Shown: one piece after another, positions 39,770 through 55,186 of the stretch
Layout of the letters: the number at the start of each line of letters is the position of its first letter
How positions within the stretch are numbered: position 1 is the stretch's first letter
Virus record (IMG/VR): IMGVR_UViG_3300030098_001384
Span: 1 to 55,186 of that record
Source: a virus
Lineage: Duplodnaviria > Caudoviricetes
Strand: one strand, 5' to 3'
Length of the DNA stretch: 55,186 bases
The notes under the pieces: generated by a model
The model's database searches: none
What the model was told of the DNA's origin: nothing
The model's input: only the letters and a program-made list of their open reading frames with translations
Made by a program: the position numbers and the translations under genes

Positions 39770-40226
39770 CTTCTATTAACCCTGTTACATATTTAGCTCG
39801 TCTAGCTGTTTGTTTTGCCCACCGAGAGTTTCGTGCCTCTATAGCAGCTTCTTTAAAACGATTCTCTTTTAGTAATGCAAGAGTTTTTTTAAACTTTAAT
39901 AACCCTGTCATACCCAACTGAAATCTCATGTGCATCAACGCCATCTGTGCTTTTGCTGGTACAGCTCTCCACCAAGGTAAACTGTTGTCTAAACTTTTTG
40001 CACATTCGTCTATATCGTTGTGTAGTAAATAGATGGCTTCATCTTTTGTAATCTTGCCACCTTTTTCTGGATCTATTAATCTTCCTACACCAATTGTAGC
40101 ATAACCTTCACTATCTACATATTGATGAAGTACTAGCCCCTCGTGGTCTATCAACGAGTCTACCAGTTCAGATTTACGAAAACTATCTACTACTGTCATT
40201 TTTTTGCAAACATTTTTGTTGCCCAA
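39762..40226 (-). CDS. T4-type lysozyme (GH24) endolysin
   Basis: HEGLVLHQYVDSEGYATIGVGRLI catalytic E-x8-D-x5-T; SRWAKQT. Confidence 0.9.
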   Translation of the reverse strand: MGNKNVCKKMTVVDSFRKSELVDSLIDHEGLVLHQYVDSEGYATIGVGRLIDPEKGGKITKDEAIYLLHNDIDECAKSLDNSLPWWRAVPAKAQMALMHMRFQLGMTGLLKFKKTLALLKENRFKEAAIEARNSRWAKQTARRAKYVTGLIEDA

Positions 40227-40588
40227 CGAATACCGAGTGATGCAGATATTGCACCGATAAAGGTGTAACTATACCACTCTGGTGCATTTGCTACATATTC
40301 CCATCCTAACATTACAAACTCTTGTGTCCAAGGAAGGAATGATCCAATAAAAGGCAAAGTTATAACTAGCAATGCAAATTCATCTTTCCAACTGTACTGT
40401 TGTTGACGAAGTGCTTCTATGTCATAATTTATTTCTGATTCAGCTGTTCTTTCTATCTGTCTTATTTGAGCATTTACTTTTGCTTGTTCTACTTTTACTT
40501 TGTTTTCAGCTTTAATAGTGCGTTCTTGCATGTAAGACTTTACAGGTTCGCTGACTAAACTGATAATTGGTCCTAAAAAACTTAACAT
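40196..40588 (-). CDS. Holin-like membrane protein
   Basis: SWKDE followed by two hydrophobic helices; adjacent to lysozyme. Confidence 0.65.
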   Translation of the reverse strand: MLSFLGPIISLVSEPVKSYMQERTIKAENKVKVEQAKVNAQIRQIERTAESEINYDIEALRQQQYSWKDEFALLVITLPFIGSFLPWTQEFVMLGWEYVANAPEWYSYTFIGAISASLGIRWATKMFAKK

Positions 40589-40598
40589 TGTTTTTCCT

Positions 40599-42260
40599 TT
40601 AAATTATTGTATATGATCCCGTAAGATTTTTATGTAACATTTCAAATAATGTAGCTGGTCGTTCTCCGTAAGCAACTATATTTTGTGTATGACGACCATG
40701 ATAATCTTTTGGACTATTTGGATCTGGCCTTCCAGTGTCTCTTCTTGTTGTTACTGTAGTGTATTCTCCAGATAGCGGAGTATTTATTCCTGCGCTTACT
40801 GGATCTACTAATCCACCATTTTTATAGGCCATATCTTGATACCTCTTATTAAAATCTTCCATTTTTGCTTTATAATCTTCTTGGCTAGTAATTGGTTGCC
40901 CGTTATACGTTGGAGTTCCTGTAACCAGTCCTTCTGTTTCAAGTATTGCACGGATCATTGTACTAGAATCAGAATACCCAGTTTCTCCCGTGCTATCATA
41001 TCTTGCTAACCGAGGGTTTTCTTGAATAAATTTTTGCCAGCGGTTGCCATTAAATTGTAATCCAAAGTCTTTTACATATTGATTTACATAATCAGCTATA
41101 CTTGCCCCAACAGCCTGTCCACTTTCTTTTCTAAAAGCATTGTAACCATATCCTGCTGTAGTCATTAACTTATTAGAGCTTGCTTTTAGATCAACACCAC
41201 CAAACGCTGGTTTAGGTTTGCTTCCTCCAAAAAGATGACTCAATGCAAATTTTGCTGCGTGTAAAATAGCTATTGGTACAGCTGTTGCAGGATTAATGAG
41301 TGTTATAAGGCTTGTACCAGCTCCAAATAAATCTCCTTTTTTTATACCATCATATATACCATAAGCACTTGCAAGATTTCCTAATGTAGCCCATGTACTA
41401 GACGCTGTAGATTTTGCTTGTCCTGCTAAACCCGTTTGAAAAGGAACATTGCCTGATGCTCCTACGTTAGTAAATGTAGATAATCCTGTTTGTGTTCCAG
41501 CCCGTACACCTAAATTTGCTAATCCTGAAACTGCTCCTGAAGCAAAAGGCATCATAGAAACATTGCCTTGGCCTGCTAAAGATGCCGGTGGAGCAGAACT
41601 TAATCCTACGGAAGATTGTGTTGGGTATGTTCCTAGGTATCCTGTTGAATAAGGTTGGCGATAGCCTCCTTGTGAAATATCATAAGCTCCAGTAGTTTGA
41701 ATTTCTGAAGGTGGATTTGTAAAAAAATCTCTTATAGATTCATAACCTTTTATAGCATACCTTTTTGCTGGATCTACTAATTGTTGTAAGTCTAACTCAC
41801 CTATTGGTGGTGGAGTATCTAAATCTCCTTCAGCAGCTGCTTCGGCAAGTTCTTCTTCTGCTGTTTTTCCTGATATGCCTACAGGTTTTAATGCTGCATC
41901 TGGTCCTGTGCCTCTACCAATATTACTAAACTCTATTGGATCTGTAGTAAAAGGAGAAGAACTTTTAAAAACAGCATCTATTTTATCTGATGCAGATTCA
42001 GCATCTGGATCTTCAAAAGTAGATAAATCTCCAGTAAATAAATCTTTCTTTCTTAAATTTACAGCAATATTACCTTGAAGTTGCACATCTACTTTATTTG
42101 CATCACTAGGTTTTATATCTTCTGGAGTAAGAGACTCTGCAATATCTTTTTGCATCTTCTCAGCCATAGCAGTATCAAATTGACTTTCTGGTATTTTGCC
42201 AAAATTTTCTTGGTCTAAACTTACAGAAGCTGAGTCAAATGTGTTTTGTTCAATTGCCAT
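40599..42260 (-). CDS. Hypothetical virion protein
   Basis: ORF track; Gly-rich middle region; YKNGG motif. Confidence 0.6.
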   Translation of the reverse strand: MAIEQNTFDSASVSLDQENFGKIPESQFDTAMAEKMQKDIAESLTPEDIKPSDANKVDVQLQGNIAVNLRKKDLFTGDLSTFEDPDAESASDKIDAVFKSSSPFTTDPIEFSNIGRGTGPDAALKPVGISGKTAEEELAEAAAEGDLDTPPPIGELDLQQLVDPAKRYAIKGYESIRDFFTNPPSEIQTTGAYDISQGGYRQPYSTGYLGTYPTQSSVGLSSAPPASLAGQGNVSMMPFASGAVSGLANLGVRAGTQTGLSTFTNVGASGNVPFQTGLAGQAKSTASSTWATLGNLASAYGIYDGIKKGDLFGAGTSLITLINPATAVPIAILHAAKFALSHLFGGSKPKPAFGGVDLKASSNKLMTTAGYGYNAFRKESGQAVGASIADYVNQYVKDFGLQFNGNRWQKFIQENPRLARYDSTGETGYSDSSTMIRAILETEGLVTGTPTYNGQPITSQEDYKAKMEDFNKRYQDMAYKNGGLVDPVSAGINTPLSGEYTTVTTRRDTGRPDPNSPKDYHGRHTQNIVAYGERPATLFEMLHKNLTGSYTII

Positions 42261-42495
42261 TCCTGTTCATTTCCTTAAAGTTATCCTTCAGTTTGAGGAG
42301 CATTTCCAGTAAACCCGCTTTCCCCTGCAGCCGGTACACCTCCAACTCCGATGGTGCCATTACCAGTGCCGTTAAGGTCTGCTTGTGGAGGTCCTTCAGG
42401 TAGTCCTCCAACACCTGCCATTCCATCTTGTCCTGCCCCAGCAGCGGGGCTAGGGCCTTGAGTGGCTCCTTGAGCTTCTTCAGGTTGTTGGGCAT
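42250..42495 (-). CDS. Small portal-adjacent protein overlapping the portal C-terminus
   Basis: MPNNLKK...ELEVYRLQGKAGLLEMLLKLK; links portal to the next gene. Confidence 0.6.
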   Translation of the reverse strand: MPNNLKKLKEPLKALAPLLGQDKMEWQVLEDYLKDLHKQTLTALVMAPSELEVYRLQGKAGLLEMLLKLKDNFKEMNRNGN

Positions 42496-44389
42496 CTTGT
42501 AATCCTTTGAGTATTTCTGCGTAAATTTGTGCTTCATTTACATCATTAACTAAGCTATCTGGATCAATATCCTGTGATATAGCTAGTTCTTTTAATAAAT
42601 TTGGTATTTTAATAAATGGTGCAAGCATAGGGTTGCTTACAGTTTGTAGTAACATAGTTAATCGTTGTGAACGTACTTCTTTTTGCATTACAGAAGCAGC
42701 ACCTTTTGGTTTAATTTCTAAATCACCTATTATATCTGGATTATCATCATTAAACTGCATGTTCCATTGAAAGAAAGCTTCTCCCATAGGTTTTAGTAAA
42801 TAGTCATCTATGTTTTTAATAACAGTTTTTATAGATAATCCTGAAGAACCAAGCAACATAGATAATCCTGCAGCTGTTCTTCCTGTACCAGTTACACCAG
42901 TTTGTCCATGCATGATACTCGGTATACCTGTTTCTTCATCAGCTAATTGCCTTGCTTTATCATACATTTGTATGTTTTCACCAGCGGTACTAGGAAATTT
43001 TATACCGTTTACAGCGGTTCCAGTGACTCCTGATTGCCTTCTAAACACTTTTCCGGGAAAAATATCATAATTCTGTCCGGGTACAAGAGATGTCTCATCT
43101 ACGTCAAATACAAGGTTACCAGCTAGTGCTAAGTTATCTATAGCCATACGTACATGACCATTCATTAACATTTGTGCATCTTCCATGTTTTCTGGAACTC
43201 CTACACCCCATATTTGATAAGGACTAAGTTCATACGGAAATGCATAATATGGCATTCTTTCTGGTGTAAATGGATTAACACAAGCTCGTAAAACTTGTCC
43301 TCCAGAAATCCAGATATTTACTTGTGCTTGATCTAATGGATCTAAATCTTCACAACCCTCTATTCTCATACGTTGAGCAACGGTAGCATCTAACACACCC
43401 CAATATTCAAGTACCTCGTAACGTTCATGTTCATTATATGGTTCATTTTCATCATCACGTATTGTGTCTTCAAAATACTTTTCCATATAATTGCCACCAC
43501 CAGCAATAACTGTTCGTATAGCTTCTGGATCAAACATGGGCATATTCATAAGATTACGTAATTGAGAACGATTCATTTTATGACGTTGTATTACATATTC
43601 ACAATCATGTATGCTTGTTGCAGTTGGATCAGGATATATATCCCAAATACTTACTGCTTCAATACGGGGTACAAGCTTATCATATGGCATATAAGCTCTT
43701 CCTTCTGGTGTATCCTCCCATTTATGAATAGTTTTACCAAAATTAAATGGGCCTTTTATGATTCCTGTACCTAACAACGCTGATTCAAAAATAGAATGAC
43801 GTAAAACATTTACAGCATTAGTATCTGTAAGTTGGTCATGAATTACCTTTTCCATTGCCAATGCAGAAGATTTTGCTGGAGATATCTGCGGTTCACCCAT
43901 TTTAGCTGGACCTTCAGCTACAGGAGCTTCAGGACCAAACTTATTTATCATAGAACCTAAATAGTCTAAATTTTCATCCGCAGCTTCAGTTGCTCCCGGT
44001 GGAAAATCTCTTCCGTCACCCTCAAAACCATATGGATCAAGTATATCATCCGCAGGAGTTTTTAAATGAGCAAATTCTGCAATACCTTCTGGTATAGGTG
44101 TATGATCTACAGTCAATGGAAACTTTTTATTTGCAAATAAAATGTCTACAATTTGACCATAAGCAGCTAGTACTTTTGTCTTTGTTATTTTTATAAATAC
44201 TTTAGACTTTTCAGTACTTGTATACTGTGTAGTAGAATCATAAACTCCACGAAAGTTTTTATACGCTTTTAACCAGCGTTCTTCGTGAGTTTGTCTACCA
44301 TCTTCAGCGATACGCATACGATCTTGAATTAGTCCTATAACTCCAGAACCGTCAGATACTTCTTCTGTTATATCAGTTGGATCAGACAT
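42281..44389 (-). CDS. Portal protein
   Basis: KITKTKVLAAYGQIVD, IYPDP, GVGVPENMEDAQ, TAAGLSML; 702 aa. Confidence 0.9.
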   Translation of the reverse strand: MSDPTDITEEVSDGSGVIGLIQDRMRIAEDGRQTHEERWLKAYKNFRGVYDSTTQYTSTEKSKVFIKITKTKVLAAYGQIVDILFANKKFPLTVDHTPIPEGIAEFAHLKTPADDILDPYGFEGDGRDFPPGATEAADENLDYLGSMINKFGPEAPVAEGPAKMGEPQISPAKSSALAMEKVIHDQLTDTNAVNVLRHSIFESALLGTGIIKGPFNFGKTIHKWEDTPEGRAYMPYDKLVPRIEAVSIWDIYPDPTATSIHDCEYVIQRHKMNRSQLRNLMNMPMFDPEAIRTVIAGGGNYMEKYFEDTIRDDENEPYNEHERYEVLEYWGVLDATVAQRMRIEGCEDLDPLDQAQVNIWISGGQVLRACVNPFTPERMPYYAFPYELSPYQIWGVGVPENMEDAQMLMNGHVRMAIDNLALAGNLVFDVDETSLVPGQNYDIFPGKVFRRQSGVTGTAVNGIKFPSTAGENIQMYDKARQLADEETGIPSIMHGQTGVTGTGRTAAGLSMLLGSSGLSIKTVIKNIDDYLLKPMGEAFFQWNMQFNDDNPDIIGDLEIKPKGAASVMQKEVRSQRLTMLLQTVSNPMLAPFIKIPNLLKELAISQDIDPDSLVNDVNEAQIYAEILKGLQDAQQPEEAQGATQGPSPAAGAGQDGMAGVGGLPEGPPQADLNGTGNGTIGVGGVPAAGESGFTGNAPQTEG

Positions 44390-44407
44390 GCTGTTTCCTT
44401 TGTGTTA

Positions 44408-44644
44408 TTAACCGTGTTCGCCTTGAGTTACTTTACCTTCTATTTTACCAGCAGCATTTCTGTGATTAGTTTTAGATGATGGAGAATCTTGTGTTTGTTT
44501 AAATTCACCAGAATTTGCTCCCATTATCGTTGGATCTAATCCCTCACGGTGTAATGCACTTTCATTAGCTTCATTCATTGCACCATGTTTTACACTGCGT
44601 GTAATATAGTCGGAACTATAAGCTCCTTGTACTCCTTTTGGCAT
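44408..44644 (-). CDS. Small hypothetical late protein
   Basis: ORF track; SD AGGAGG. Confidence 0.7.
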   Translation of the reverse strand: MPKGVQGAYSSDYITRSVKHGAMNEANESALHREGLDPTIMGANSGEFKQTQDSPSSKTNHRNAAGKIEGKVTQGEHG

Positions 44645-44670
44645 AATTGCCTCCTTTTGGTTGGTTGTTG

Positions 44671-46311
44671 TTAAAATCCTAGCTCGTTCATAGCTTCAAC
44701 TATACGAGCATCTTGTTCTTCACGTTCTCTTTCTTTTTGCTGTTGTTCTCCTCTTAGAACTCCTTTTCGTATTTCAGCACCACGTGGATTATACCCTTCC
44801 ATCTCAAATAATTCAGAAGCAACAGGAGATGGTTCTAAACCTATGGGTGATAATGCATCTGGAAAATCAAACGGTGCTGCTTCTGTATCAAATACCTCGT
44901 AGCCCACCCCTGTTCCTACAATTGCAGCTACAGGTTTACCTATTTTTGTTCTTGCTATAAGATCTAATACTTTTTGTGAAAGTTTTTTTGGTTTCTTTAA
45001 CATGTCGTCTGTTTGTGCTCTTATCTCTGCAGCCTTTTGTTTTTTTTCTGCAGCAGATAGTTCTTTACGAGCAATATAGTCATCAGCATCAGCTTGCCCC
45101 ATTGCTCTTACAGATTCCGATTGATTTAAATCTATGGTTGCAGGAGAGGATAGTACTGTTCCAGCTGCTGGTAAAGACTCCTTAAATCCTTTTACAAGTT
45201 GTGTTGAGTAGATTTCGTCTGTTAATAAATCTTGTGTAACTGCAATTCTAGCTGTCTTTTCTGATACGTTATCATACCCTAAATTACTTAATAGTTGACT
45301 TACAGAATTTGTTCCTGTATATGCAGCAACTTTAGCAGCTACCATATTACCAGATTGTGTTACTTTATTTTTGTTTGTTCTACTTGTTACATATCCCGCA
45401 CCTTCATCTACACCTGCTCTTCCGGTTGCTATTCTTCTTTCAGAATCTGGTGTTCCTAACTCTACATGCATAGATTCATTTGCATTTCTAAAATTATAAG
45501 AAGTAATGTTTTCTGTAACATATTTTTCTACGTTAGGTTTATATACTTGTACCCCATCTGGAAAAGCTATTTTTAAATTATCATTAATAATTTTTGTAGA
45601 ACCTTTAATGTCAGCAAAAAGTGGTCCAGAAGTACGATTACCTTTTTGTACTCGTAATATATCTAATATAGGATCAGACAAAATTATAGTTTTTTTACCG
45701 CTTTTAGTAGCTGCAGCGTTTATAACACCTGCATTAAAATTTATTTTTTCTATATTTAATCCATCCATATCAGACGGTCTAAATCCTCCAAGAAACATAA
45801 CAGAAGCTAAATTTTTTGCTTCACCATCTAAATTTGCAATAACAGAAGGAACCTTTTTGTAAAAATTATCTGGAAGTTCACTTATTATTTTTCTAGCACG
45901 TCTTTTACTCCAGCCAGATGCATCTTCGTAGGCCTTTGGGCCAACTTCTTTTTCTAATAAAGTAGAAAGATACCCCCCACGTTGTGATAACCCTGCACCT
46001 TCAAATACAGCATTTAATCTTATTATAGATTTAAGAACAGAAGCTTTTCCTCTTTTTGCTAAACTTCCTGTTATAAAAATATTTTTAAGTAACTCACCCT
46101 GTCCTTGAACTTGATTTGGAGTTAATTTAAGAAAAGTAGTCTTTTTTCCTTTACCTAAATTTATAGTATCTAAAGATAACAGTTTTTTTACAGCTGCAAC
46201 TTCCCCTTTATTATTAGGATTTTTTTTAACTTCAAGATCAAGTAACTCATCAAATGTCATATTCATTCTATCAGCTACTGCACTTTTACCTGTAAAATCT
46301 ATTTCAGCCAT
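44671..46311 (-). CDS. Tyrosine recombinase/integrase-like protein with divergent active site and C-terminal extension
   Basis: GGFRPSDMDGL, ATKSG, YNFR, TGR, AGY in lambda-Int order. Confidence 0.65.
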   Translation of the reverse strand: MAEIDFTGKSAVADRMNMTFDELLDLEVKKNPNNKGEVAAVKKLLSLDTINLGKGKKTTFLKLTPNQVQGQGELLKNIFITGSLAKRGKASVLKSIIRLNAVFEGAGLSQRGGYLSTLLEKEVGPKAYEDASGWSKRRARKIISELPDNFYKKVPSVIANLDGEAKNLASVMFLGGFRPSDMDGLNIEKINFNAGVINAAATKSGKKTIILSDPILDILRVQKGNRTSGPLFADIKGSTKIINDNLKIAFPDGVQVYKPNVEKYVTENITSYNFRNANESMHVELGTPDSERRIATGRAGVDEGAGYVTSRTNKNKVTQSGNMVAAKVAAYTGTNSVSQLLSNLGYDNVSEKTARIAVTQDLLTDEIYSTQLVKGFKESLPAAGTVLSSPATIDLNQSESVRAMGQADADDYIARKELSAAEKKQKAAEIRAQTDDMLKKPKKLSQKVLDLIARTKIGKPVAAIVGTGVGYEVFDTEAAPFDFPDALSPIGLEPSPVASELFEMEGYNPRGAEIRKGVLRGEQQQKEREREEQDARIVEAMNELGF

Positions 46312-47936
46312 CAGTATCCAAATTCCTCACTAAATGTTGGTTCATATCGTTGTGTTTGTCGTCTACTATAAAACGGTGTGCTTGAATTATGTAAAGATCG
46401 TACCATCATCATATACCGTAACGCATCATATGCGTGATCATCTGCTTTTGTATCTACATCCTCTGGGTTGTGTTTAGATAAAGGTAATGTAGGCAATGTT
46501 CTTACAAGATTAGTGCAATTTTCCATAATACGAACTCTTGGTTGTCCTCGGCTATCACAGGCCAATCGTCTGTGAACTTCTATCTTTCCTGCCAATCTAT
46601 TTCTATCTGCTGGCACCCATCTACACCCTTTTCTATTCATTGTTTCTGCTATACTTGGTCCTAGACCTACTTTATTCCAACAGCTGGAGTCTAGTACATT
46701 GATTTGCATAATTGGATCGTTTCTTTCTAGCTCTAGAACCAAGTCTCCCAATGCTTCTCCGGTTTGATTTTTTATGTATAATTCTCTATAGATCCAGATG
46801 TTGTTATCCCAGTCTATAGCACCCCATAAAATACAAGAAGGGCTGCTGTAACCATAGTCTCCGGAACGTATCCTAGTCCAGCCATCGGGAGGATCAAAGG
46901 TTTCCACCACATGTAAGGTTCTGCTGAACTCTGTAAAGGCTGCTCCTTCTGCAACATCCCAATCTCCTTCTAAAAGTCTTTTTCTTTCTACCTCTGGAAG
47001 TGAAAGCAACATTGCTTCATACTGTCCATCTATAGCAAGATATGGATTATCTGTCAACCTTGCTGGTATAAATTTTTTTAAAAATAACGGTTCGCCTGAT
47101 TTAGTATGACCAACCGGATAACGAATAATTTTATTTGTATCAAAATCCTTAGCCCAAAATGCCTTATTTGGCGGTGAAGGATCTATGTACATCTTCTTTA
47201 CCCACCAACCTCCAACACCACCGGGATTAGCTGTGCACCTCATATATAGGCCAAGCTGTGGATCGGTGCTTCTCAATCTGGATCTTAGGTAATTCCACAC
47301 GTATGGTGTGGGATACTGTGTTATTTCGTCTATACCTATCCAATTAAACGCTTGTCCTTGATATCTTGTTACGTCTCTGTCATCATCTACGTAAGAAAAC
47401 CATATTTTTGCCCCAGATGGAAACTCCCATGTAGATTTTGCCTGTTTAAATACTGCTCCGGGTACAGCTTTTGTATATAATTGCCTACTTTTGTCTATTA
47501 ACTCTGTTAATTCTGGTAAAGTACGTCTTAAAAGCAATCCTCTGTGGTTTGGATTACCTACATCTCTTAAAACATCGGCTAAAAGTGCGTATGATTTACC
47601 CCCTCCAGCTGCTCCACCGTATAATACGTCTCTTTCTGGGCTTTCTAAGAACTCAGACTGTGGTCCATCATTAGCTTTGAATACAACTTCGTTCTCTGCT
47701 ACATGATTTCTTACTTTTTCTGGTAAAGCAAGGAGTTCTTCTTCTGTTATCGGCTCTTTTCCAACCCCTTTAAGAGCTGCATCTATTTTGCCGATGCTTT
47801 CTTGTAGCTTATTTGCCCTGTATCGTGCATTTATAGCACGTTTTGATTGTTTTTTTGCATTTGCTCTAGCGTTAGATAGCTTTGTTGAAATAGACTTTCG
47901 TATCTTTTTACTATCAAGCTTGGCTGTTTTTGCCAT
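46311..47936 (-). CDS. terL: Terminase large subunit
   Basis: YGGAAGGGKS Walker A, IGIDE Walker B, TANPGG, DYGYS, DHAYDALRY. Confidence 0.95.
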   Translation of the reverse strand: MAKTAKLDSKKIRKSISTKLSNARANAKKQSKRAINARYRANKLQESIGKIDAALKGVGKEPITEEELLALPEKVRNHVAENEVVFKANDGPQSEFLESPERDVLYGGAAGGGKSYALLADVLRDVGNPNHRGLLLRRTLPELTELIDKSRQLYTKAVPGAVFKQAKSTWEFPSGAKIWFSYVDDDRDVTRYQGQAFNWIGIDEITQYPTPYVWNYLRSRLRSTDPQLGLYMRCTANPGGVGGWWVKKMYIDPSPPNKAFWAKDFDTNKIIRYPVGHTKSGEPLFLKKFIPARLTDNPYLAIDGQYEAMLLSLPEVERKRLLEGDWDVAEGAAFTEFSRTLHVVETFDPPDGWTRIRSGDYGYSSPSCILWGAIDWDNNIWIYRELYIKNQTGEALGDLVLELERNDPIMQINVLDSSCWNKVGLGPSIAETMNRKGCRWVPADRNRLAGKIEVHRRLACDSRGQPRVRIMENCTNLVRTLPTLPLSKHNPEDVDTKADDHAYDALRYMMMVRSLHNSSTPFYSRRQTQRYEPTFSEEFGY

Positions 47937-48207
47937 CTAAATACGTTCCTAACTTACTACGTTTTTTTAATCCCTCGTCAGAGATATACCTATCTGTTTT
48001 TGCTAATAACCATTGGCTTGCTTTTCGCCATCCACAAGACTTTGCATAAGTTAATGCTTGATCTAGTGCTTGTAGTTCTTCTGGTATAGGAGATAAATGT
48101 TTTTCATCTTCTGTATCTAACACATACCCAAATGGTATAGTACTGGTTTTTCTTCTTATCTTACCACCGGCTACTTTCATTAAACAAATTCCCCTGTTTT
48201 GAATCAT
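47914..48207 (-). CDS. Small recombinase-like/HTH protein upstream of terL
   Basis: IPFGY...RKASQWL...ISDEGLKKR. Confidence 0.6.
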   Translation of the reverse strand: MIQNRGICLMKVAGGKIRRKTSTIPFGYVLDTEDEKHLSPIPEELQALDQALTYAKSCGWRKASQWLLAKTDRYISDEGLKKRSKLGTYLDGKNSQA

Positions 48208-48391
48208 ATAAATTATCTATTGCTTGTATTTTATCAGTGTTCTCTGCAATAACACCTAACCACTTATCCATTTCTGCTGTAATATCAGAATGTTCTCCAA
48301 TACCTACAGCAGAATGCGATAAAACATCAAGATTAGCCTTAGCTATTTCTATTTCAGCTCCGTACTTTTTTCTTAATGCCTCTAGTCTCAT
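48161..48391 (-). CDS. Conserved phage hypothetical protein
   Basis: AKANLDV...AVGIGEHSDI motif. Confidence 0.7.
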   Translation of the reverse strand: MRLEALRKKYGAEIEIAKANLDVLSHSAVGIGEHSDITAEMDKWLGVIAENTDKIQAIDNLYDSKQGNLFNESSRW

Positions 48392-48394
48392 AGT

Positions 48395-48565
48395 TTAACC
48401 TTTTCTTTCGCCTACAAAGAAGCCAATAGCACCAGCACAACCACAGCAAATCATAACAACACTTTGCCATAGATCATTTGGTACCATTATGCCTAACATT
48501 GCAAATACACCACTAAGTGCTGCATAAGATGAAGGTTCTTTAAATCTATTCATTAATTCAACCAT
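48395..48565 (-). CDS. Small holin-like membrane protein (56 aa, not in track)
   Basis: MVELMNRFKEPSSYAALSGVFAMLG...; two TM segments; SD AGGAGG. Confidence 0.65.
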   Translation of the reverse strand: MVELMNRFKEPSSYAALSGVFAMLGIMVPNDLWQSVVMICCGCAGAIGFFVGERKG

Positions 48566-48725
48566 TATCGTTTCCTCCTTTAGTTGATGTCATACATGCA
48601 CAAGGATTATCTTCTGTACATGTACAGTTTTCACAGTCACAATTTTCGCATGTACAAGTTTTGTTCTTTTTAGAGTACATGTTGTCGTAGTTTTCGTAGT
48701 TTTCTGTACCTATAGAAATTGCCAT
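48558..48725 (-). CDS. Metallothionein-like Cys-rich peptide (55 aa, not in track)
   Basis: MAISIGTENYENYDNMYSKKNKTCTCENCDCENCTCTEDNPCACMTSTKGGNDNG; SD GGGAG. Confidence 0.65.
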   Translation of the reverse strand: MAISIGTENYENYDNMYSKKNKTCTCENCDCENCTCTEDNPCACMTSTKGGNDNG

Positions 48726-48730
48726 ACTCC

Positions 48731-49312
48731 CTATTGTCCTGCTAACGGGTTATTCAATGCTCTTTCTAGCATTGTTCTTAATCTATCCTCTAGCTCTTTT
48801 AATTTAATATCTATCGTTTCTATACGTCTTTGTGCATCAGACTCAATCGCTGTTCGTTTTCCGTCAAAACGATCCTCTGCATGTTGAATTAAACTGCGAA
48901 TATCATTTTCGCTTGTACGTATAGAAGTACGAATCTCTTGTTCCATTGTTCTAGACCGTCTGTCTACCGCAGCTATTTGATCATGTACATCATGTACATC
49001 ACTACGTAAATCAGTTCGTATGGTTCTTGCGTCATCTTGAGCTGCACCTACTAACTCTTTTACTGCAGACATTTCAGTACTTGTGTTTGTTTCTAAACTT
49101 GTTATTCTTTCTTCTAATACATCCAGTTTTAGATTAAAACCAGAAAGATCAGGAGCAACGTATTTATCAATTTTTTCCTCCATAGCTACCCACCGAGCAT
49201 ATCCTTCAAATCCAGCCCAGAGAGCACCACCTAAAGTTCCCAGTAACGGAAGGATTAATAAAAGTTTCCCTCCACGAATTTTTATACCTTTATATTCTAC
49301 CTCGTTAGTCAT
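48731..49312 (-). CDS. Membrane-anchored coiled-coil protein
   Basis: One TM then a long coiled coil ending ALNNPL. Confidence 0.7.
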   Translation of the reverse strand: MTNEVEYKGIKIRGGKLLLILPLLGTLGGALWAGFEGYARWVAMEEKIDKYVAPDLSGFNLKLDVLEERITSLETNTSTEMSAVKELVGAAQDDARTIRTDLRSDVHDVHDQIAAVDRRSRTMEQEIRTSIRTSENDIRSLIQHAEDRFDGKRTAIESDAQRRIETIDIKLKELEDRLRTMLERALNNPLAGQ

Positions 49313-50957
49313 ATTGGTCTTGAATCATCCTTTCCATCTGTAAGCTTGATCTAACACTTATATAATTACCTAACGGATCAGGTAAAATTTCATCGGTATA
49401 AATATCTTCTGGAACATACCATGTAGGTTGTATTTGTATAACCTGTGCTTGGTACGTAGATATGTTTGGTCCTAATGCATTTACAAGAGCTAAAGTTGTT
49501 ACTTGTGTTACAGGGTTATAACTATTTGGTAATCCTGCTATTATTTGTTTTGCCTTTTCTTGTTTTTGCTCTTGTTCCTTTGTTGGTTTGTTTTCCGCTA
49601 CTTCCTTTGATTCTTCTTTTGCTTCTTCCTCAACTACTTGCTTTTCTTCTTTTGGTTCTTCTTTTGCTTCTTCCTCAACTACTTGCTTTTCTTCTTTTGG
49701 TTCTTCTTTAGCAACAGGTTTTTCTTCTTGTGCTTCTTCCTGTACTACTTCTTTTTCCTGCGATTCTTCAGTAGCCTCTTCAGCTTCCACTGGACTGCTA
49801 GTAGTTGTTTCTTCTTGTGGTTCAACTTCATTTTTAACTTCGTTCTTAATTTCAGGAGTTGTTTCCATTTCTGTTTCAGCAACTTCTACTGGCTCCTCTA
49901 TATTTTCTTGCATGGATTCTTCTACTACTGGCTGAGATTCCACACTTGGTTGTTCCATTATAGGTTCGGCAATAGGTTCTACTTCCATACCTATTTCTTC
50001 TATCTCTGCCACCATTGTTTCTACTTCTACCATCACTTCATTCATGGACATCTCCCCCATATCCATATCCTGAAACATACCCTCAGAGACACCAATATTT
50101 ACTGTTTCAGGCATACCCTGTTCAAAATCATCTGGTGGCATGGACATATCTGGCATTTCTAAGTCAATTACTGCTATGTCCTCTATCTGTATTTCCTCAA
50201 AACTATCTTCGTTTGGTAGTGTTGTTACACTTGTATAGCTATCCATGATAGTTTGTGTTATTTGTTCTTGTGCCTGTATGGGTTGTAGTATTTCTACCCA
50301 TGTTTCTACAGTTGTAGTTATTACATTATAATTAATAGTGTAGGCCACATTATCAAAAAAGTAATTTTTAGCTCCACCTATTCTTATAAACACCCTATCA
50401 AGATCTCCTGCAAAATCATATGTTCCTGAATATGTTGTTGGAGTTTGATGGTTTTCTAAGGTTATCTGCCCAGTATCCCATTGTAATATGTTATCGTTAT
50501 AACCTTTTGTTTGAAAATACCCTGTTGTATTTGCTTGTGAATGGTGCATTTGTAGTTCCCATTCTAAAGCACCACCTTCAGATATGTGAAACTGAGATAT
50601 ATCCACATACTGATCAAACGTGGTTAAGCTGTTTGATGTTCCCTTACCACATCTTCCACTTCCGAAATAGGATTCACAATTTGGCATACTTGCCGGTCCA
50701 AGTCCTCCCCAATCATAATCCATGTCTCCGTGCTTGGTGTTCCCCACAATACCTGTATCTGCATGGAGGATGTCTTCTGTGGTTTTGTGTTCCACCGTTG
50801 TAGTTGTTTGCGTAACTTCTCTAACATTACCTTGTTCCTCTATTTCCTGTACAACTGTATCGCCTTCGTCTAATAACTGTGCCTTACTATATGAAAAATA
50901 AAATAAGAAGAATAGAGAAGATACCAAGAGCACCTTCATCAGTGATGATTTCTTCAT
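49305..50957 (-). CDS. Secreted protein with long Glu-rich low-complexity stalk
   Basis: Signal peptide, beta-rich N-terminal domain, E/P/K-rich repeats. Confidence 0.7.
   Translation of the reverse strand: MKKSSLMKVLLVSSLFFLFYFSYSKAQLLDEGDTVVQEIEEQGNVREVTQTTTTVEHKTTEDILHADTGIVGNTKHGDMDYDWGGLGPASMPNCESYFGSGRCGKGTSNSLTTFDQYVDISQFHISEGGALEWELQMHHSQANTTGYFQTKGYNDNILQWDTGQITLENHQTPTTYSGTYDFAGDLDRVFIRIGGAKNYFFDNVAYTINYNVITTTVETWVEILQPIQAQEQITQTIMDSYTSVTTLPNEDSFEEIQIEDIAVIDLEMPDMSMPPDDFEQGMPETVNIGVSEGMFQDMDMGEMSMNEVMVEVETMVAEIEEIGMEVEPIAEPIMEQPSVESQPVVEESMQENIEEPVEVAETEMETTPEIKNEVKNEVEPQEETTTSSPVEAEEATEESQEKEVVQEEAQEEKPVAKEEPKEEKQVVEEEAKEEPKEEKQVVEEEAKEESKEVAENKPTKEQEQKQEKAKQIIAGLPNSYNPVTQVTTLALVNALGPNISTYQAQVIQIQPTWYVPEDIYTDEILPDPLGNYISVRSSLQMERMIQDQYD
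49611..49709. repeat. 45-bp coding tandem repeat (about 2.2 copies)
   Basis: Encodes EPKEEKQVVEEEAKE repeats. Confidence 0.85.
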
Positions 50958-51435
50958 TTTTTACATTCTCCTTTACCCATTGATCATAGTCTGGTCTTTT
51001 CTTAGGATTATTCGCCCACTCTTCTGCAGCTTCTATTCCTATCTTACCCATGTATGGACAGGGAGTTCCGGCCATTTCCATCGCTTGAAATACACGGGAA
51101 TCTTGGCAGAGCATGGCTACAGCTCCTACTTTCATTCCCATACGGTACAAAGCACGAGATAACTTTAATCTTTCACAGTTTAAATCTCTTACTGCTGTAC
51201 CACCAGCCAATCCTAGTATTTGTGTTTGTACCGCTGCAGAAGCAGCAAAGCTACATACATCTTGATTGTTTACCACCACCGATGGAGCACTGGCTGTGCC
51301 AACCGTTCTATCTACCGTAGTTGTGCCGGATACTGTACTACTGGTACTTGTCACTGTGTTGGTCTGTGCCAAAGATTCTGTCTGCCAGAAACTTACACAA
51401 GCCAGCACTGTAATAACGAACAACCATTTGTACAT
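50887..51435 (-). CDS. Secreted/membrane Cys-containing protein
   Basis: Signal peptide; TASAPS...DVC...NCERLKLSR...GMKVGAVAMLCQDSRVFQAMEMAGTPCP; C-terminal TM. Confidence 0.75.
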   Translation of the reverse strand: MYKWLFVITVLACVSFWQTESLAQTNTVTSTSSTVSGTTTVDRTVGTASAPSVVVNNQDVCSFAASAAVQTQILGLAGGTAVRDLNCERLKLSRALYRMGMKVGAVAMLCQDSRVFQAMEMAGTPCPYMGKIGIEAAEEWANNPKKRPDYDQWVKENVKNEEIITDEGALGIFSILLILFFI

Positions 51436-51437
51436 TA

Positions 51438-51857
51438 CTAATCCTCATCATCAATATCAATTACGTTTGGCATGGGTGCCTTGCTGGGCATCATTACTAT
51501 GCCATGCAAAGCTTTTACATCATGTTCTTGTTTTTCTATTTTTCCTAGGCCAACTCTGTCTAACAACGTCTGAGCAGCCTTTAGTCGTAATTCCTGTCTG
51601 GGGTTTAACCCATCGTCATTCATAGATTCTACTACCCTAGATACAGCAGTAGCCGAATTAACGGCTAGTTCTCGTTTGGATATATCTATGATTTCATCTG
51701 CAAGGGCTTTTACAAGCCAAGTTCTAGAAGAAGGAGCATATCCTGCTGCCTCACAGGCTAAGGCTATATCTCCTCTGTTTACAAACAATGCATCAAGAAA
51801 CTTCTTTTGTTTTTCGGTAACTTCTTTTTTCTTTTCTGGTAGAAGTGCTGAGGTCAT
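51438..51857 (-). CDS. terS: Terminase small subunit
   Basis: TEKQKKFLDALF...AAGY HTH; RLKAAQTLLDRVG. Confidence 0.75.
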   Translation of the reverse strand: MTSALLPEKKKEVTEKQKKFLDALFVNRGDIALACEAAGYAPSSRTWLVKALADEIIDISKRELAVNSATAVSRVVESMNDDGLNPRQELRLKAAQTLLDRVGLGKIEKQEHDVKALHGIVMMPSKAPMPNVIDIDDED

Positions 51858-52222
51858 CCGTAGGTCTGTGCCTTTCTCACCCCGCCACCTTTGGCGTACT
51901 TTTTAACATATCCACCTTTGGCCTTCTTCTTCTTCTTTTTGTCAGCGTCAGCTTTTGATACTTTTTCAGCAGCACTAACCATAGAAGCTGCTTCTCCTGT
52001 TCCAACTGTACGACTTGTCAATTTAGTTATGGCATTTTCAAGTTTTCCTAAAGAAAATGCATTATTTTCTTGTGCTTGTTTAAAGAAAGCATTGTTAGCG
52101 TTTATTCTGTTAGTTTCTTTTTTATTAATATTGCCGTCTTTATCTTTAACTATTACAGGAAGAGCATCCCCTTCCCTTACTGTTGCTCCAAAAAATATAC
52201 CTCTTCTTACTGCTGTACTCAT
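51854..52222 (-). CDS. Small basic protein with KAKGG/YAKGGG tail
   Basis: ORF track. Confidence 0.7.
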   Translation of the reverse strand: MSTAVRRGIFFGATVREGDALPVIVKDKDGNINKKETNRINANNAFFKQAQENNAFSLGKLENAITKLTSRTVGTGEAASMVSAAEKVSKADADKKKKKKAKGGYVKKYAKGGGVRKAQTYG

Positions 52223-52488
52223 CCGTAACTCCTCGCCTTTCTCATTCCTCCACCTTTGGCATAGGTTTTCTTGTGGACTTTGCCACCATGGACCATTTTC
52301 TTTTTAATTTTGCCACCCATTGCTTTTTGTTTAATACCATAGGCTTTTATAAGTCTAGCTATATTTTTTTCTGTCATAGGAGTATCCGGTGCCACTTTTC
52401 TTAAAAAAGCAATAGTGGCTGCCATATCCAATGGTTCTACCGGAACAGCTACACTTTTTGGCTTACCTTTATCGTTATCACCTGCCAT
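52219..52488 (-). CDS. Small basic protein with three xxxGG motifs
   Basis: ORF track. Confidence 0.7.
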   Translation of the reverse strand: MAGDNDKGKPKSVAVPVEPLDMAATIAFLRKVAPDTPMTEKNIARLIKAYGIKQKAMGGKIKKKMVHGGKVHKKTYAKGGGMRKARSYG

Positions 52489-52491
52489 CCC

Positions 52492-52572
52492 CTACATCTC
52501 CGCACAAGCGTAGCAGTTTATTTCCAGCCCTACAGATATTTCATTCACTTGTGGTTTATTCCAGTTTCTCAT
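52492..52572 (-). CDS. pqqA: PQQ biosynthesis precursor peptide PqqA (26 aa, not in track)
   Basis: MRNWNKPQVNEISVGLEINCYACAEM: W-x-K-P leader and G-x-E-I-N-x-Y (E-x3-Y) core; SD AAAGGAAG. Confidence 0.85.
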   Translation of the reverse strand: MRNWNKPQVNEISVGLEINCYACAEM

Positions 52573-52781
52573 CGGATCACTTCCTTTCATGTGTGATAAA
52601 GTTACATAGGTATCAGAGAGGGATGGCACATTATGAAAGTTAGCACTTTCCTCCGGAGATAGAATATTTATTAGTATAACCTATCCCCCTCTTCGTGGGA
52701 GTGTAGCGTTTACTCCAAGTCCTCATGTACATACACTTGTTGCAAAACTTTGAGTAGTTTATGTGCTACACTTACCTTTAT

Positions 52782-52809
52782 ATTATAGCGTATATAACGA
52801 TGTTGTCAA
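52782..52809 (-). promoter_or_regulatory. Consensus sigma70 promoter for the late block
   Basis: TTGACA-16 nt-TATAAT. Confidence 0.8.
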
Positions 52810-52827
52810 GAAAAAAATAAAAAAAAC

Positions 52828-52855
52828 TTGACAGGTCTGAAATACGGTGTATAAT
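52828..52855 (+). promoter_or_regulatory. Consensus sigma70 promoter firing into non-coding region
   Basis: TTGACA-16 nt-TATAAT with upstream A-tract. Confidence 0.75.
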
Positions 52856-53298
52856 GAAGGTACCCCCGTTGGGTTAGATACATATACCTCCCCCTAGCCT
52901 CCCCTACAGGTAACTAATAGCATGGCACACTCTCCAACCAGTGGAAAATCCTCTAAGGTGGGCCTTCTGGTTGGTACCTTAAAGTATGCCCAAAAATTTC
53001 TGGTAGGGTGCCTAAAAAATACACAAAATTGTGCGTGATTGCATACAGTATACCGGGTACCCCCCACTGTCCCTTGCGTGCGGGTAACCCTTTGTTTTTA
53101 TTTACTTTTACTGTTACTTCCTCAATGATGGAATCACCCCCCAAGATATCCCACAAGATAATATTACAGTTGGATATGAGGTAAAACAAAAGTTCCGCAT
53201 CATGCACACGCAAAAGGTAGGGGCTGACAATTTTTCTAGTTGGCAAACTTTAAGGTTAACTGTAGGGAGTACAAAAGCGTATCTTCTATGGGCGGATA

Positions 53299-53328
53299 TA
53301 AAAAAACCCTAGCGGTTAAACTAGGGTT
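53299..53328 (-). terminator. Rho-independent terminator ending the early block
   Basis: AACCCTAG-TTTAACCG-CTAGGGTT followed by TTTTT. Confidence 0.75.
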
Positions 53329-53353
53329 CCTTTGGGGAAGTTGTGGCTAGTCT

Positions 53354-53695
53354 TTAGTTATACCATTTATCTTTTATTTCTATTTTCCTAATGGCATCTT
53401 TAATATTTACTAACTTGTATTCGTTAGCGTTTACCTTCTGGCGTATCTTGGAGCATGGCACACCCAAAAACTTAGCAAGGTATTTGGAAGTTGTTCTTGA
53501 ATAGTCCCAAGTGTGAGAATCTAACTCTACCAGATCAACTTCAGCTATCCAACGAGCAACCCAACTGTTGTATGACTTAAAATATCTGTCACCGTTGGGC
53601 ATTGTTACGAAAGTTTGATTGTTTGCTATGTTTTCTATTTCTAACATGGTCTTAATCCTTTCACAGTTATTGTAAATATAACCTAGTATAAACAT
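53354..53695 (-). CDS. Conserved small early phage protein (likely start 53647)
   Basis: FKSYNSWVA...WDYSRTTSKYLAKFLG motif. Confidence 0.7.
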   Translation of the reverse strand: MFILGYIYNNCERIKTMLEIENIANNQTFVTMPNGDRYFKSYNSWVARWIAEVDLVELDSHTWDYSRTTSKYLAKFLGVPCSKIRQKVNANEYKLVNIKDAIRKIEIKDKWYN

Positions 53696-53706
53696 AAAAG
53701 TTATAT

Positions 53707-53922
53707 TTAGTCAAATTTCTTTAAATCCTCACACTCTGCAAAAGCGTTTAATAATCCTTTGGTTTTTCCGAATGATTGCATAAAAAGATCATAGTTTTTA
53801 TTGTCTAACTTACTTATTGCAGTGTGTAATCTTCCCACCGCATCCGTAATACTATCAGTCCTTGTATCTTTCATTCCAATAGTAGAAAGATATTTTTTAA
53901 ATATTTCATAAGTCATTAACAT
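53707..53922 (-). CDS. Hypothetical early protein
   Basis: ORF track. Confidence 0.55.
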   Translation of the reverse strand: MLMTYEIFKKYLSTIGMKDTRTDSITDAVGRLHTAISKLDNKNYDLFMQSFGKTKGLLNAFAECEDLKKFD

Positions 53923-53923
53923 T

Positions 53924-54178
53924 CTATTTGTCCTTCCTCAATGCTTTTATTATATTTATAGCGTTATTTTCAACTGTGTAATTCTTATCTAAATTATGAT
54001 ATTTCCTATCATGCACCATTCCAGAATGAATCATTAACAAGGTGACACCTACGGCTAATTCAAAAGAAAATACAATAAAGGAAAATAGATCATATACTTC
54101 AGCGTAGACAAAGACACCAAATGCGGTTAAAGCATGTAGACAAGCAACCCACCCAACTATTTTAATAAATGTCATCAT
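53924..54178 (-). CDS. Two-TM membrane protein
   Basis: ORF track; hydrophobic helices. Confidence 0.6.
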   Translation of the reverse strand: MMTFIKIVGWVACLHALTAFGVFVYAEVYDLFSFIVFSFELAVGVTLLMIHSGMVHDRKYHNLDKNYTVENNAINIIKALRKDK

Positions 54179-54182
54179 GGTA

Positions 54183-54446
54183 TTAATCCCTTCCTTGTAA
54201 ATATAACTTAGTGTTTAAACCATAGCATACTTTAAATCTTTTATTGCTTAATTCCTCAGTAAAGTATCTTACAGGATTATCCTCACTGTCATGCGAGTGG
54301 TAAGAATTTAAAAACTTAGTCCAGAAGTTTGCACCTTCATAATTTTCCCACCGATTGTCTAATATTTTACTTGTGTTTTCTTTAGTGTTTCCCATTTTAA
54401 TAGTAAATGAGTTTTGTTTTAATTTTATAGTTTCATATACTAACAT
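54183..54446 (-). CDS. Hypothetical early protein
   Basis: ORF track; SD AGGAG. Confidence 0.6.
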   Translation of the reverse strand: MLVYETIKLKQNSFTIKMGNTKENTSKILDNRWENYEGANFWTKFLNSYHSHDSEDNPVRYFTEELSNKRFKVCYGLNTKLYLQGRD

Positions 54447-54470
54447 AATGTTCTCCTATATAAGTTAAAA

Positions 54471-54513
54471 AAAAGTTAAGTACATTATATACTTAACTTT
54501 TCTTTTTTGTCTA
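54471..54513 (-). promoter_or_regulatory. Promoter with a 12-bp inverted repeat flanking the -10 box
   Basis: TAGACA-18 nt-TATAAT; AAAAGTTAAGTA-cattata-TACTTAACTTTT. Confidence 0.5.
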
Positions 54514-54624
54514 TATTAAAGATAATATTATTATAATTAAAACAATTATCCATGCTATCTTAAATACTGCATTGATTATCTCCATAATGTTTGCCTTGAG
54601 TGTTATAAGTTAAAAACATAGCTA

Positions 54625-55186
54625 TTATGCCACCGCTAATTCTTCTAAGTTTTTCCAACTATCAGAATCCAACATGTTACGAACTGCAATCTCTCTTTCC
54701 TTTTGAACATTTGCCTTTTGGCTCCCTTTTCTGCCTGTAGACAATTCTACAACTTCACCTTTTTTGTTGACAGTTTCCCATGTCTCGTCAGTGTGAGTAG
54801 ACCAGTGTGTGACAGCATTGTATAAAGCCCAAAGTGTTTTGCCTAAACTGCCCTGTTCCTGTTCATATCTGTACAGCAAATAATCTGACAGTCTGGTATT
54901 GATATTGGCACTAGTTTTATCTAAGTCTTTTAATGTCTCAACTGTTCTAGATTTTTTATAAGCAACAGTGTCAGCTAATAACTTAGCAACTTGGTTATCA
55001 GTAACCTTAGCATTAGACCAAAGTTTAAACTTATCCCCTTGAGTTTGAAATACATCTAATGTGCCATTAATTTTTGACAAGGCACTTGCAATGGATAGAC
55101 CACCTGTATGTTTCCTTCTTTCATGGTAAAACTTTTGACCACCAAACACTAAGGTATTGAGACATAGACTACGATATGCACCTGTA
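54625..55186 (-). CDS. 3' part of DUF932-like protein wrapping the origin
   Basis: RRKHTG, TLWALYNAVTHWSTH motifs; continuous with 1..610. Confidence 0.8.
   Translation of the reverse strand, partial: TGAYRSLCLNTLVFGGQKFYHERRKHTGGLSIASALSKINGTLDVFQTQGDKFKLWSNAKVTDNQVAKLLADTVAYKKSRTVETLKDLDKTSANINTRLSDYLLYRYEQEQGSLGKTLWALYNAVTHWSTHTDETWETVNKKGEVVELSTGRKGSQKANVQKEREIAVRNMLDSDSWKNLEELAVA

Follow-up and report, generated by a model that had tools for sequence, protein, structure and literature searches.

The 55,186 bp of DNA analysed here (hereafter the window), which form the whole of an IMG/VR virus record with a CheckV completeness of 100%, encode on the minus strand a 26-residue PQQ precursor peptide, PqqA (52492..52572). 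On the evidence of two curated profiles and of its conservation, this gene is a real PqqA-family gene, and we consider it probable that it is a functional pqqA from an AT-rich marine alphaproteobacterial host, which would feed the host PQQ pathway as an auxiliary metabolic gene (AMG). Indeed, the gene is set in a viral genome, its product belongs to a host pathway (pqqABCDE) whose B to E members were not found on the virus, and it shows selection within the viral lineage.

Identification of the pqqA gene

Translation of the 81-nt minus-strand ORF at 52492-52572 gives MRNWNKPQVNEISVGLEINCYACAEM, exactly the peptide announced in an earlier note on this DNA, and its 26 residues contain the PqqA motifs W4-x-x-P7 and E17-I-N-C-Y21 (E17-x3-Y21). 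The Shine-Dalgarno sequence that the note had placed before the ORF is the purine-rich AAAGGAAG, 8 nt upstream of the ATG (52580..52587, minus strand). The stop, said to fall 3 nt ahead of the next ATG, does so: the junction reads TAG-GGG-ATG, with one codon between the pqqA stop and the next ATG, and both ORFs share the same frame. The final codons of pqqA (…GCG-GAG…) are also the ribosome-binding site of the next gene, and part of the conservation of the C-terminus may therefore reflect that site.

The assignment to PqqA, for which a profile search had been suggested as a check, was obtained with both curated models. The equivalog model TIGR02107 (NCBIfam) gives 36.5 bits (cut-off 20, E 3e-9) over profile positions 1-21 of 21 and the Pfam model PF08042 gives 26.3 bits (cut-off 21.1) over positions 1-19 of 19. 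Since a six-frame search of the genome retrieves a single PqqA site (E 1.8e-9) and none of the 14 control genomes matches, this is not a chance match. An ORF of just 81 nt is easily missed, and the expectation that gene callers would overlook it was largely right: the exact phage peptide is not present in a collection of 15 billion proteins. Six look-ups were made in this collection, of which four were absent and one was named PqqA via a bacterial MAG; among them, one related viral PqqA peptide, present on 28 contigs, is in the collection without a name.

The phage genome

The window has a GC content of about 31-40% (2-kb windows), and pqqA lies at the head of the strand bearing the packaging and structural genes. 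Further down this strand come the large terminase (46311..47936, minus strand; phrog_979, E 5.4e-59) and the portal or head-tail adaptor (42281..44389, minus strand; phrog_332, E 1.2e-77, also phrog_1216), and upstream is a DUF932 gene, so that pqqA is placed within viral genes. The terminase is 47-58% identical to those of Roseobacter phage CRP-603, Pelagibacter phages HTVC115P and HTVC033P and Puniceispirillum phage HMO-2011, and on this basis we regard the window as an HMO-2011-type podovirus. The genome also encodes a DnaB-like helicase, a ribonucleotide reductase (RNR) and a family A polymerase, for which DNA_pol_A is clear (161 bits) and a DnaJ_CXXCXGXG stretch is weak (21.6 bits for a Pfam cut-off of 32.7). 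HMO-2011-type podoviruses share with it a genome of about 55 kb, a related terminase, a family A polymerase and an RNR (PMC9038755). By its GC content and its RNR, the window fits their low-GC subgroup X, described with 34.4-39.0% GC and a frequent RNR and with hosts that "remain to be experimentally investigated" (Qin et al. 2022, PMC9038755).

Comparison with 50,697 GenBank phage records gave no match, either by megablast of positions 40000-55186 or by tblastn of the 26-residue peptide at E<=10. A tRNA scan of the window found 0 genes and thus offers no clue to the host. None of five cultured HMO-2011-type phages has a PqqA match at E<=1; pqqA is therefore dispensable for the group.

Promoters and leader upstream of pqqA

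The perfect TTGACA/TATAAT promoter reported in the earlier note is found at 52809-52782 (52782..52809, minus strand; spacer of 16 nt, 12/12 match) upstream of pqqA and is, from its motifs, of the host sigma-70 consensus type. A second perfect promoter (12/12), divergent to the first, is located on the plus strand (52828..52855); this one is absent from the note. The whole 55 kb contain three perfect TTGACA/TATAAT sites for 0.10 expected (at least three in 0 of 100 shuffles), and two of the three make up this back-to-back divergent pair. In the window and in 8/8 close-clade loci with at least 300 nt of upstream sequence, a promoter with 11-12 of the 12 positions precedes pqqA by 192-237 nt, and its divergent partner has 11-12/12 in the same nine genomes; in the 72-74% clade, the pair was not found within 600 nt in five of the six assessable loci. 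The stretch from the promoter to pqqA also contains a 30-aa ORF (52640-52732); since the ATG of the latter is not kept in the alignment of relatives, pqqA is the first conserved ORF, in line with its description as the first convincing one after the promoter.

The 5' leader of the pqqA operon, of about 200 nt (52573..52775, minus strand), is predicted by RNAalifold to be structured, with 32 pairs of which 17 are compensated on both sides (seven sequences); no Rfam family was detected at gathering thresholds in the leader or in the rest of the window. It includes an invariant 13-mer, CTATCTCCGGAGG (52662-52650), with an adjoining hairpin (52635..52662 together, minus strand) in which four of the six pairs covary. 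Of 248 loci, 14 have the 13-mer, and each of these is a pqqA locus of the close clade; the leader is therefore a feature of the operon of the close lineage rather than of pqqA as such. Contigs from a marine RNA library match 52526-52743 and 51825-52479 with zero differences, which covers leader and part of pqqA; as they record presence in a library, with strand, level and DNA carry-over not distinguished, they are compatible with transcription of pqqA and are no proof of it. Gaps in the RNA contigs within 40000-55186, including upstream of the promoter, carry no information, and runs X2-X4 cover small shares of the stretch, so that no habitat or abundance is drawn from them.

Conservation and selection among terminase relatives

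Two checks proposed beforehand, a syntenic ORF upstream of the terminase in relatives and the conservation of the Glu and Tyr residues together with selection, both gave positive results. A terminase-based scan of IMG/VR yielded 588 relatives, from which 80 loci were kept, many of them too short to reach the pqqA position; 18 of the 80 have a pqqA ORF, located without exception 1.9-5.7 kb upstream of the terminase and on its strand. When the comparison is limited to the 11 loci whose upstream sequence reaches 5.7 kb or more, its occurrence follows the identity of the large terminase: 4/4 at 87% or more, 1/3 at 72-74% and 0/4 at 63-68%. All 18 full-length copies have AGGA or GAGG 6-10 nt upstream of the ATG; the L017 copy, cut at the contig end, did not enter the counts on selection and spacing.

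Twelve positions are invariant in 14 aligned peptides (W4, P7, E11, V14, G15, E17, I18, N19, C20, Y21, C23 and A24), and across 16 distinct nucleotide versions the fixed residues are W, P, E8, G, E, I, N, C, Y, C and A, with the Glu and Tyr of E-x3-Y among them. Over these 16 versions, the 11-codon core VGLEINCYACA has a pN of 0.013 for a mean pS of 0.70 (pN/pS 0.018), which suggests that the frame is translated and that the PQQ-forming part is strongly constrained; by this measure, the core is under strong purifying selection. The ten codons ahead of it, the fixed W, P and E aside, have a pN/pS of 1.1.

Stand-alone pqqA in other phage lineages

A scan of IMG/VR for the core GLEINCY returned 353 confirmed stretches, a lower bound because the exact core was required, so that core invariance in this second set is by construction. 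Among 79 newly fetched loci, all with a GC content of 30-41%, 69 have no protein in common with the window (6 kb on each side), so that several unrelated phage lineages carry a stand-alone pqqA; of the other 10, two share distant replication genes alone and eight are HMO-2011-type relatives. The viral setting is clear at several of these loci: in L178, pqqA is flanked by a portal and a large terminase (phrog_38, E 5.8e-111), a ribonucleotide reductase is encoded beside it in L222, and there are phage cytidyltransferase families in L183 and L214 and a baseplate-hub match in L173. Several pqqA contigs of 37-75 kb are rated 11-21% complete by CheckV and would therefore be parts of much larger genomes. 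PqqE was not found above cut-off in any of 20 long pqqA-bearing viral contigs.

In favour of pqqA being a neutral passenger, a recent host fragment devoid of phage function, it is missing in the five cultured HMO-2011-type phages and in the more distant terminase clade. However, relatives whose terminase is as little as 72% identical still have the gene, its core is invariant although synonymous divergence is saturating, it has its own ribosome-binding site in every full-length copy (18/18), and several unrelated phage lineages carry it. We consequently regard this explanation as extremely improbable.

Downstream neighbours of pqqA

Next to pqqA and in frame with it lies a gene for an 89-aa protein (52219..52488, minus strand), which has no Pfam or PHROG family and 13 homologs without a name; its N-terminus is variable and its C-terminal tail is basic, rich in Gly and Lys and conserved (...YAKGGGMRKARSYG). 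It is followed by a 122-aa paralog with the same C-terminal tail (...YAKGGGVRKAQTYG; 51854..52222, minus strand), whose sole family match, DUF1117, is sub-threshold, and by a 139-aa ORF without family match (51438..51857, minus strand), which is a candidate small terminase by its position, the one where annotated cultured relatives have that gene. The tail-motif family was considered as a functional partner of pqqA and rejected: it is missing in the other pqqA-bearing phage lineages and is therefore lineage-specific.

This close arrangement could suggest that the peptide or its cross-linked form acts otherwise than in PQQ synthesis, or that the ORF serves to couple translation to the in-frame tail-motif gene. 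Indeed, in 11 of 18 genomes the next gene starts a single codon after the pqqA stop, the last codons of pqqA supply that gene with its ribosome-binding site, 17 of 19 pqqA-positive genomes have tail genes versus one of 67 pqqA-negative loci of the HMO-2011-type set, and a natural in-frame PqqA-tail fusion exists (P0011). This fusion is nevertheless one sequence on one 711-nt contig, and two genomes (L028 and L031) have pqqA but no tail gene. Moreover, 69 of the 79 other viral pqqA loci have neither a tail-motif gene nor shared proteins, so that pqqA is kept there without a tail partner, and the amino-acid core is selected amid many synonymous changes, which a coupling ORF would not need. A role outside PQQ synthesis therefore appears unlikely.

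Partner genes and candidate host

The statement that no pqqB-E is visible in this genome was supported by two kinds of search. Profile searches of the window for PqqE, PqqD, PqqB, PqqC and the PQQ alcohol-dehydrogenase family gave nothing at E<=1. Because the PqqC model had no match in the control genomes either, tblastn searches with host PqqB, C, D and E were added, these queries being confirmed equivalogs (374.9, 332.4, 75 and 553.9 bits for cut-offs of 245, 240, 46 and 381, respectively). No homolog was detected at E<=1e-3 in the window and 159 viral loci (1.40 Mb), while the four proteins were all present in 55 of the 80 bacterial loci that served as positive control. The phage copy thus does not adjoin pqqBCDE, as a PqqA gene is expected to do, but this is not disqualifying since bacteria hold orphan copies too.

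A search for the core VGLEINCY in prokaryotic genomes, with each species represented once, gave 96 confirmed stretches, of which 80 were kept. Consistent with the alphaproteobacterial form recognised in the peptide by the earlier note, 79 of these 80 best bacterial loci carry the label Alphaproteobacteria or that of one of its subgroups. AT-rich loci (below 40% GC) account for 35 of the 80, and a PqqE homolog follows pqqA in 26 of these 35. In AT-rich (28-33% GC) marine alphaproteobacterial genomes, a pqqA with the same core directly precedes equivalogs of PqqB, C, D and E. Five AT-rich genomes (1.0-1.9 Mb) all have PqqE and a PQQ-dependent dehydrogenase of the methanol/ethanol family above cut-off (5/5 for both); their NCBI labels differ (Rhodospirillaceae, Pelagibacterales, MarineAlpha9), and we treat them as one family because all five are in the 46-genome family list of the collection. 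The MarineAlpha9 lineage is marine, AT-rich and streamlined according to published work (PMC8879329).

PqqA is found above cut-off in 40 of the 46 genomes of this candidate host family, with two copies in seven of them, the second copies being located away from the operon and having no structural genes in common with the phage. That such orphan loci might be mis-binned phage was considered and rejected: they have no structural-gene similarity to the window and a polymerase match of 21-25% alone, and they were therefore treated as chromosomal.

A comparison of 73 bacterial with 97 phage peptides (seven of the 80 bacterial loci gave no peptide) places 56 of the 97 phage peptides closer to the low-GC bacterial set and two closer to the high-GC set, 39 being tied. 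For one phage locus (L018) the peptide equals that of a bacterial orphan copy, and that of the window differs from its nearest bacterial copies at 4-6 of 23 positions. Peptide similarity thus gives a real, if modest, host signal. A search of the 46 genomes of the family for the phage terminase was negative; it adds no independent link to this host, and it is no evidence against it because there is one genome per species and many are incomplete. Taken together, these comparisons suggest that pqqA was most likely captured from an AT-rich marine alphaproteobacterial host, and the pqq-positive host that the presence of the gene had been taken to imply fits this family with its confirmed pqqABCDE.

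The same data bear on the alternative of the earlier note, that the peptide is a decoy which ties up host PqqD and PqqE. In such a case PQQ synthesis would fall, for example to redirect SAM or reducing power. The leader that a chaperone would recognise does diverge from the host versions (the 4-6 of 23 positions and the pN/pS of 1.1 given above) and the promoter is strong. In contrast, strong purifying selection has kept both reactive residues of E-x3-Y (Glu and Tyr), and with them the entire core, free of variation in the unbiased set of relatives, which speaks against a decoy since one that is not a substrate needs no such residues. In addition, a phage peptide (L018) equals a bacterial copy, and the peptide of the window fits the PqqA equivalog model better (34.5-36.5 bits for TIGR02107) than all 47 matches of the host family (33.6 bits at most). 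The decoy alternative is disfavoured and, in our estimation, very unlikely.

Proposed function

We return to the preferred reading, a functional PqqA that supplies the host pathway. In bacteria, PqqE with its chaperone PqqD cross-links the Glu and Tyr of PqqA, PqqB and PqqC complete PQQ, and the peptide is consumed during the synthesis (PMC7678222, PMC7936290). During infection, phage PqqA would be made in quantity and bound by host PqqD, the host radical-SAM enzyme PqqE would cross-link Glu17 and Tyr21, and host PqqB and PqqC would then trim and finish it into PQQ. As one PqqA is spent per PQQ and the enzymes are catalytic, PqqA would be the part of the pathway most exposed when host expression fails: in the infected cell the enzymes may persist while the consumable peptide runs out, and the phage copy would refill it. 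Periplasmic PQQ-dependent alcohol dehydrogenases could in this way stay loaded with cofactor and, because they pass electrons to the respiratory chain, energy for phage production would be upheld. Recognition of the phage peptide by PqqD is assumed here, as its N-terminal part evolves fast (pN/pS 1.1).

Methylotrophs possess up to five pqqA copies, the orphan ones being highly expressed, and a cell-free extract turned 70-80% of added PqqA into PQQ (PMC9851590). In uninfected Acetobacter, extra pqqAB raised PQQ by 29%, compared with eightfold for the whole cluster, and among single genes the effect of pqqB exceeded that of pqqA (PMC7936290). The modest gain that extra pqqA alone gives in uninfected bacteria is an observation against the supply reading.

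Beyond this phage, the 353 matches in IMG/VR suggest that pqqA is a widespread marine viral gene, mostly without annotation. It is conceivable, though we put it forward tentatively and as somewhat less probable than not, that stand-alone pqqA is a "precursor-only" gene acquired repeatedly and independently by unrelated AT-rich marine phages, and that it marks a guild living on one PQQ-reliant alphaproteobacterial family. The phages would be podoviruses of about 55 kb together with the contigs rated as small fractions of much larger genomes, and the hosts would be small-genome marine Alphaproteobacteria with PQQ-dependent, possibly lanthanide-dependent, alcohol oxidation. The most highly expressed xoxF5 genes of the ocean were assigned in 2025 to an unplaced alphaproteobacterial "Clade X" (PMC11996626), and the candidate host family may be the same as this clade or near it. 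If true, the guild would assign hosts to an abundant HMO-2011-type subgroup without cultured host and would tie viral infection to marine methanol and alcohol turnover. For the window itself, pqqA gives a concrete host hypothesis for a low-GC branch of a phage group that is among the most abundant in the ocean, and it would connect infection by phages with the PQQ-dependent oxidation of alcohols by streamlined marine Alphaproteobacteria.

Comparison with known systems

Viral PqqA is not a first, the concept being known since the 2020 report on Lake Baikal, in which PqqA is described beside a viral methanol dehydrogenase in viruses of methylotrophs and the same supply logic is proposed for PQQ-dependent alcohol oxidation (Coutinho et al. 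2020, PMC7678222). By its published description, the Baikal virus VP_266 resembles the window phage in that its phage-encoded PqqA was proposed as an AMG, and differs from it by its freshwater origin, its methylotroph hosts and its own methanol dehydrogenase (PMC7678222). Co-expression of a PqqA family with defence systems is mentioned in a 2024 paper on RiPP mining (PMC11118758). Our literature search found no report of pqqA for marine or HMO-2011-type phages; in Qin et al. 2022, "PQQ" occurs nowhere in the text and pqqA is not in the AMG section, while the supplementary tables may hold it as an unnamed orthogroup (PMC9038755). What appears to be new here is thus the occurrence of viral PqqA in marine podoviruses and in several other marine lineages, without partner gene.

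Bacterial PqqA peptides (TIGR02107 and PF08042, e.g. that of the L088 operon) are similar to the phage copy in length (24-27 aa) and in the W-x-x-P and E-x3-Y motifs, and their core, VGLEINCYACAE, is identical to the phage core. Unlike the bacterial pqqABCDE operon, the phage copy has no pqqB-E and is preceded by a consensus promoter and a predicted structured leader of 200 nt. The bacterial orphan copies (7 of the 46 family genomes) are closer in arrangement, being also away from pqqBCDE and presumably served by the same enzymes, but they are chromosomal and have no window phage genes within 6 kb on each side.

If the supply reading is right, pqqA is about the smallest AMG possible, since the phage carries the consumable substrate and borrows all the enzymes from its host. 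With psbA, cyanophages supply a fast-turnover component of the host energy system and not the whole machinery. The logic proposed for phage pqqA is the same, with the difference that the psbA product is a complete photosystem II membrane protein and that of pqqA a cofactor precursor of 26 residues.

A tail-motif protein family downstream of pqqA

The genes that immediately follow pqqA on the minus strand (window 51854-52488) belong to a family of small proteins whose N-termini are unrelated and whose C-terminal tail is conserved, basic and Gly/Lys-rich (consensus …GGK.HKK.YA[KM]GGG[IMV]RKA..YG). Members are also present in the fetched loci L005, L010, L012, L021 and others, and they are arranged in tandem, in one to three copies, directly downstream of pqqA. 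Tail-motif genes were found in 17 of the 19 HMO-2011-type genomes that carry pqqA, against 1 of the 67 phage loci that lack it, this single locus being a sequence cut at the expected pqqA position. The family was found neither in 80 bacterial loci nor in the other pqqA-bearing phage lineages. No family match was obtained in Pfam or PHROG, and none of the 13 homologs has a name. One tail carried on variable heads suggests that the tail is a signal used by the whole family, either for docking or for nucleic-acid binding.

The next tail gene lies in one frame with pqqA in 11 of 18 genomes, and only the stop and one codon separate the two (window junction 52489-52494). A public protein of 113 aa (P0011), which has a precomputed PqqA Pfam match, is a natural fusion of the form PqqA-Gln-Arg-Met-tail. 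Known from one sequence on one 711-nt contig, this fusion may reflect a sequencing variant, or it may hint at read-through of the stop.

Leader and perfect promoters

The pqqA operon is preceded by a 5' leader (window 52573-52775, minus strand) that is predicted to be structured and that combines a covarying hairpin with a 13-mer that is invariant. This leader is confined to the close clade, the nearest terminase relatives, and is a candidate for a novel cis-regulatory RNA in this lineage of phages. Beyond it, a second perfect sigma-70 promoter on the plus strand is oriented away from pqqA and, with the approximately 450 nt that follow, occupies window 52828-53350. These 450 nt contain no convincing ORF on either strand and have no match in Rfam. 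They include blocks strongly conserved among relatives, with repeated CCAACCAG-like words, and may correspond to a non-coding RNA or to a site for packaging or replication. The genome's third perfect TTGACA-16-TATAAT site (34621-34648, minus strand) lies inside a 512-aa ORF (33513-35051) and may be an internal promoter within the structural module.

Other ORFs of the window

The 546-aa ORF between the large terminase and portal genes (44671-46311, minus strand) gave weak, sub-threshold integrase-family matches only (phrog_1, E 5.5e-8; PF00589, 22.1 bits for a cut-off of 27.1). This is an unusual site for an integrase. Two further minus-strand ORFs (49305-50957 and 50887-51435) have signal-peptide-like N-termini in their sequences, and the 550-aa one contains a long repeat region that is rich in Glu and Lys and highly acidic. 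Contigs from the RNA library heap up there (one bin reaches a depth of 697), for which cross-mapping of low-complexity sequence is the most likely cause.

Bacterial-labelled contigs with a lone pqqA

Four loci (L085, L106, L120 and L132) are short AT-rich MAG contigs, one of them labelled Anaerolineales, which carry pqqA without pqqBCDE. They show no similarity to the window's proteins and may belong to other phages that carry pqqA, having entered the MAGs by mis-binning. The L085 copy is the closest bacterial-labelled PqqA to the window's peptide, from which it differs at 4 of 23 positions.
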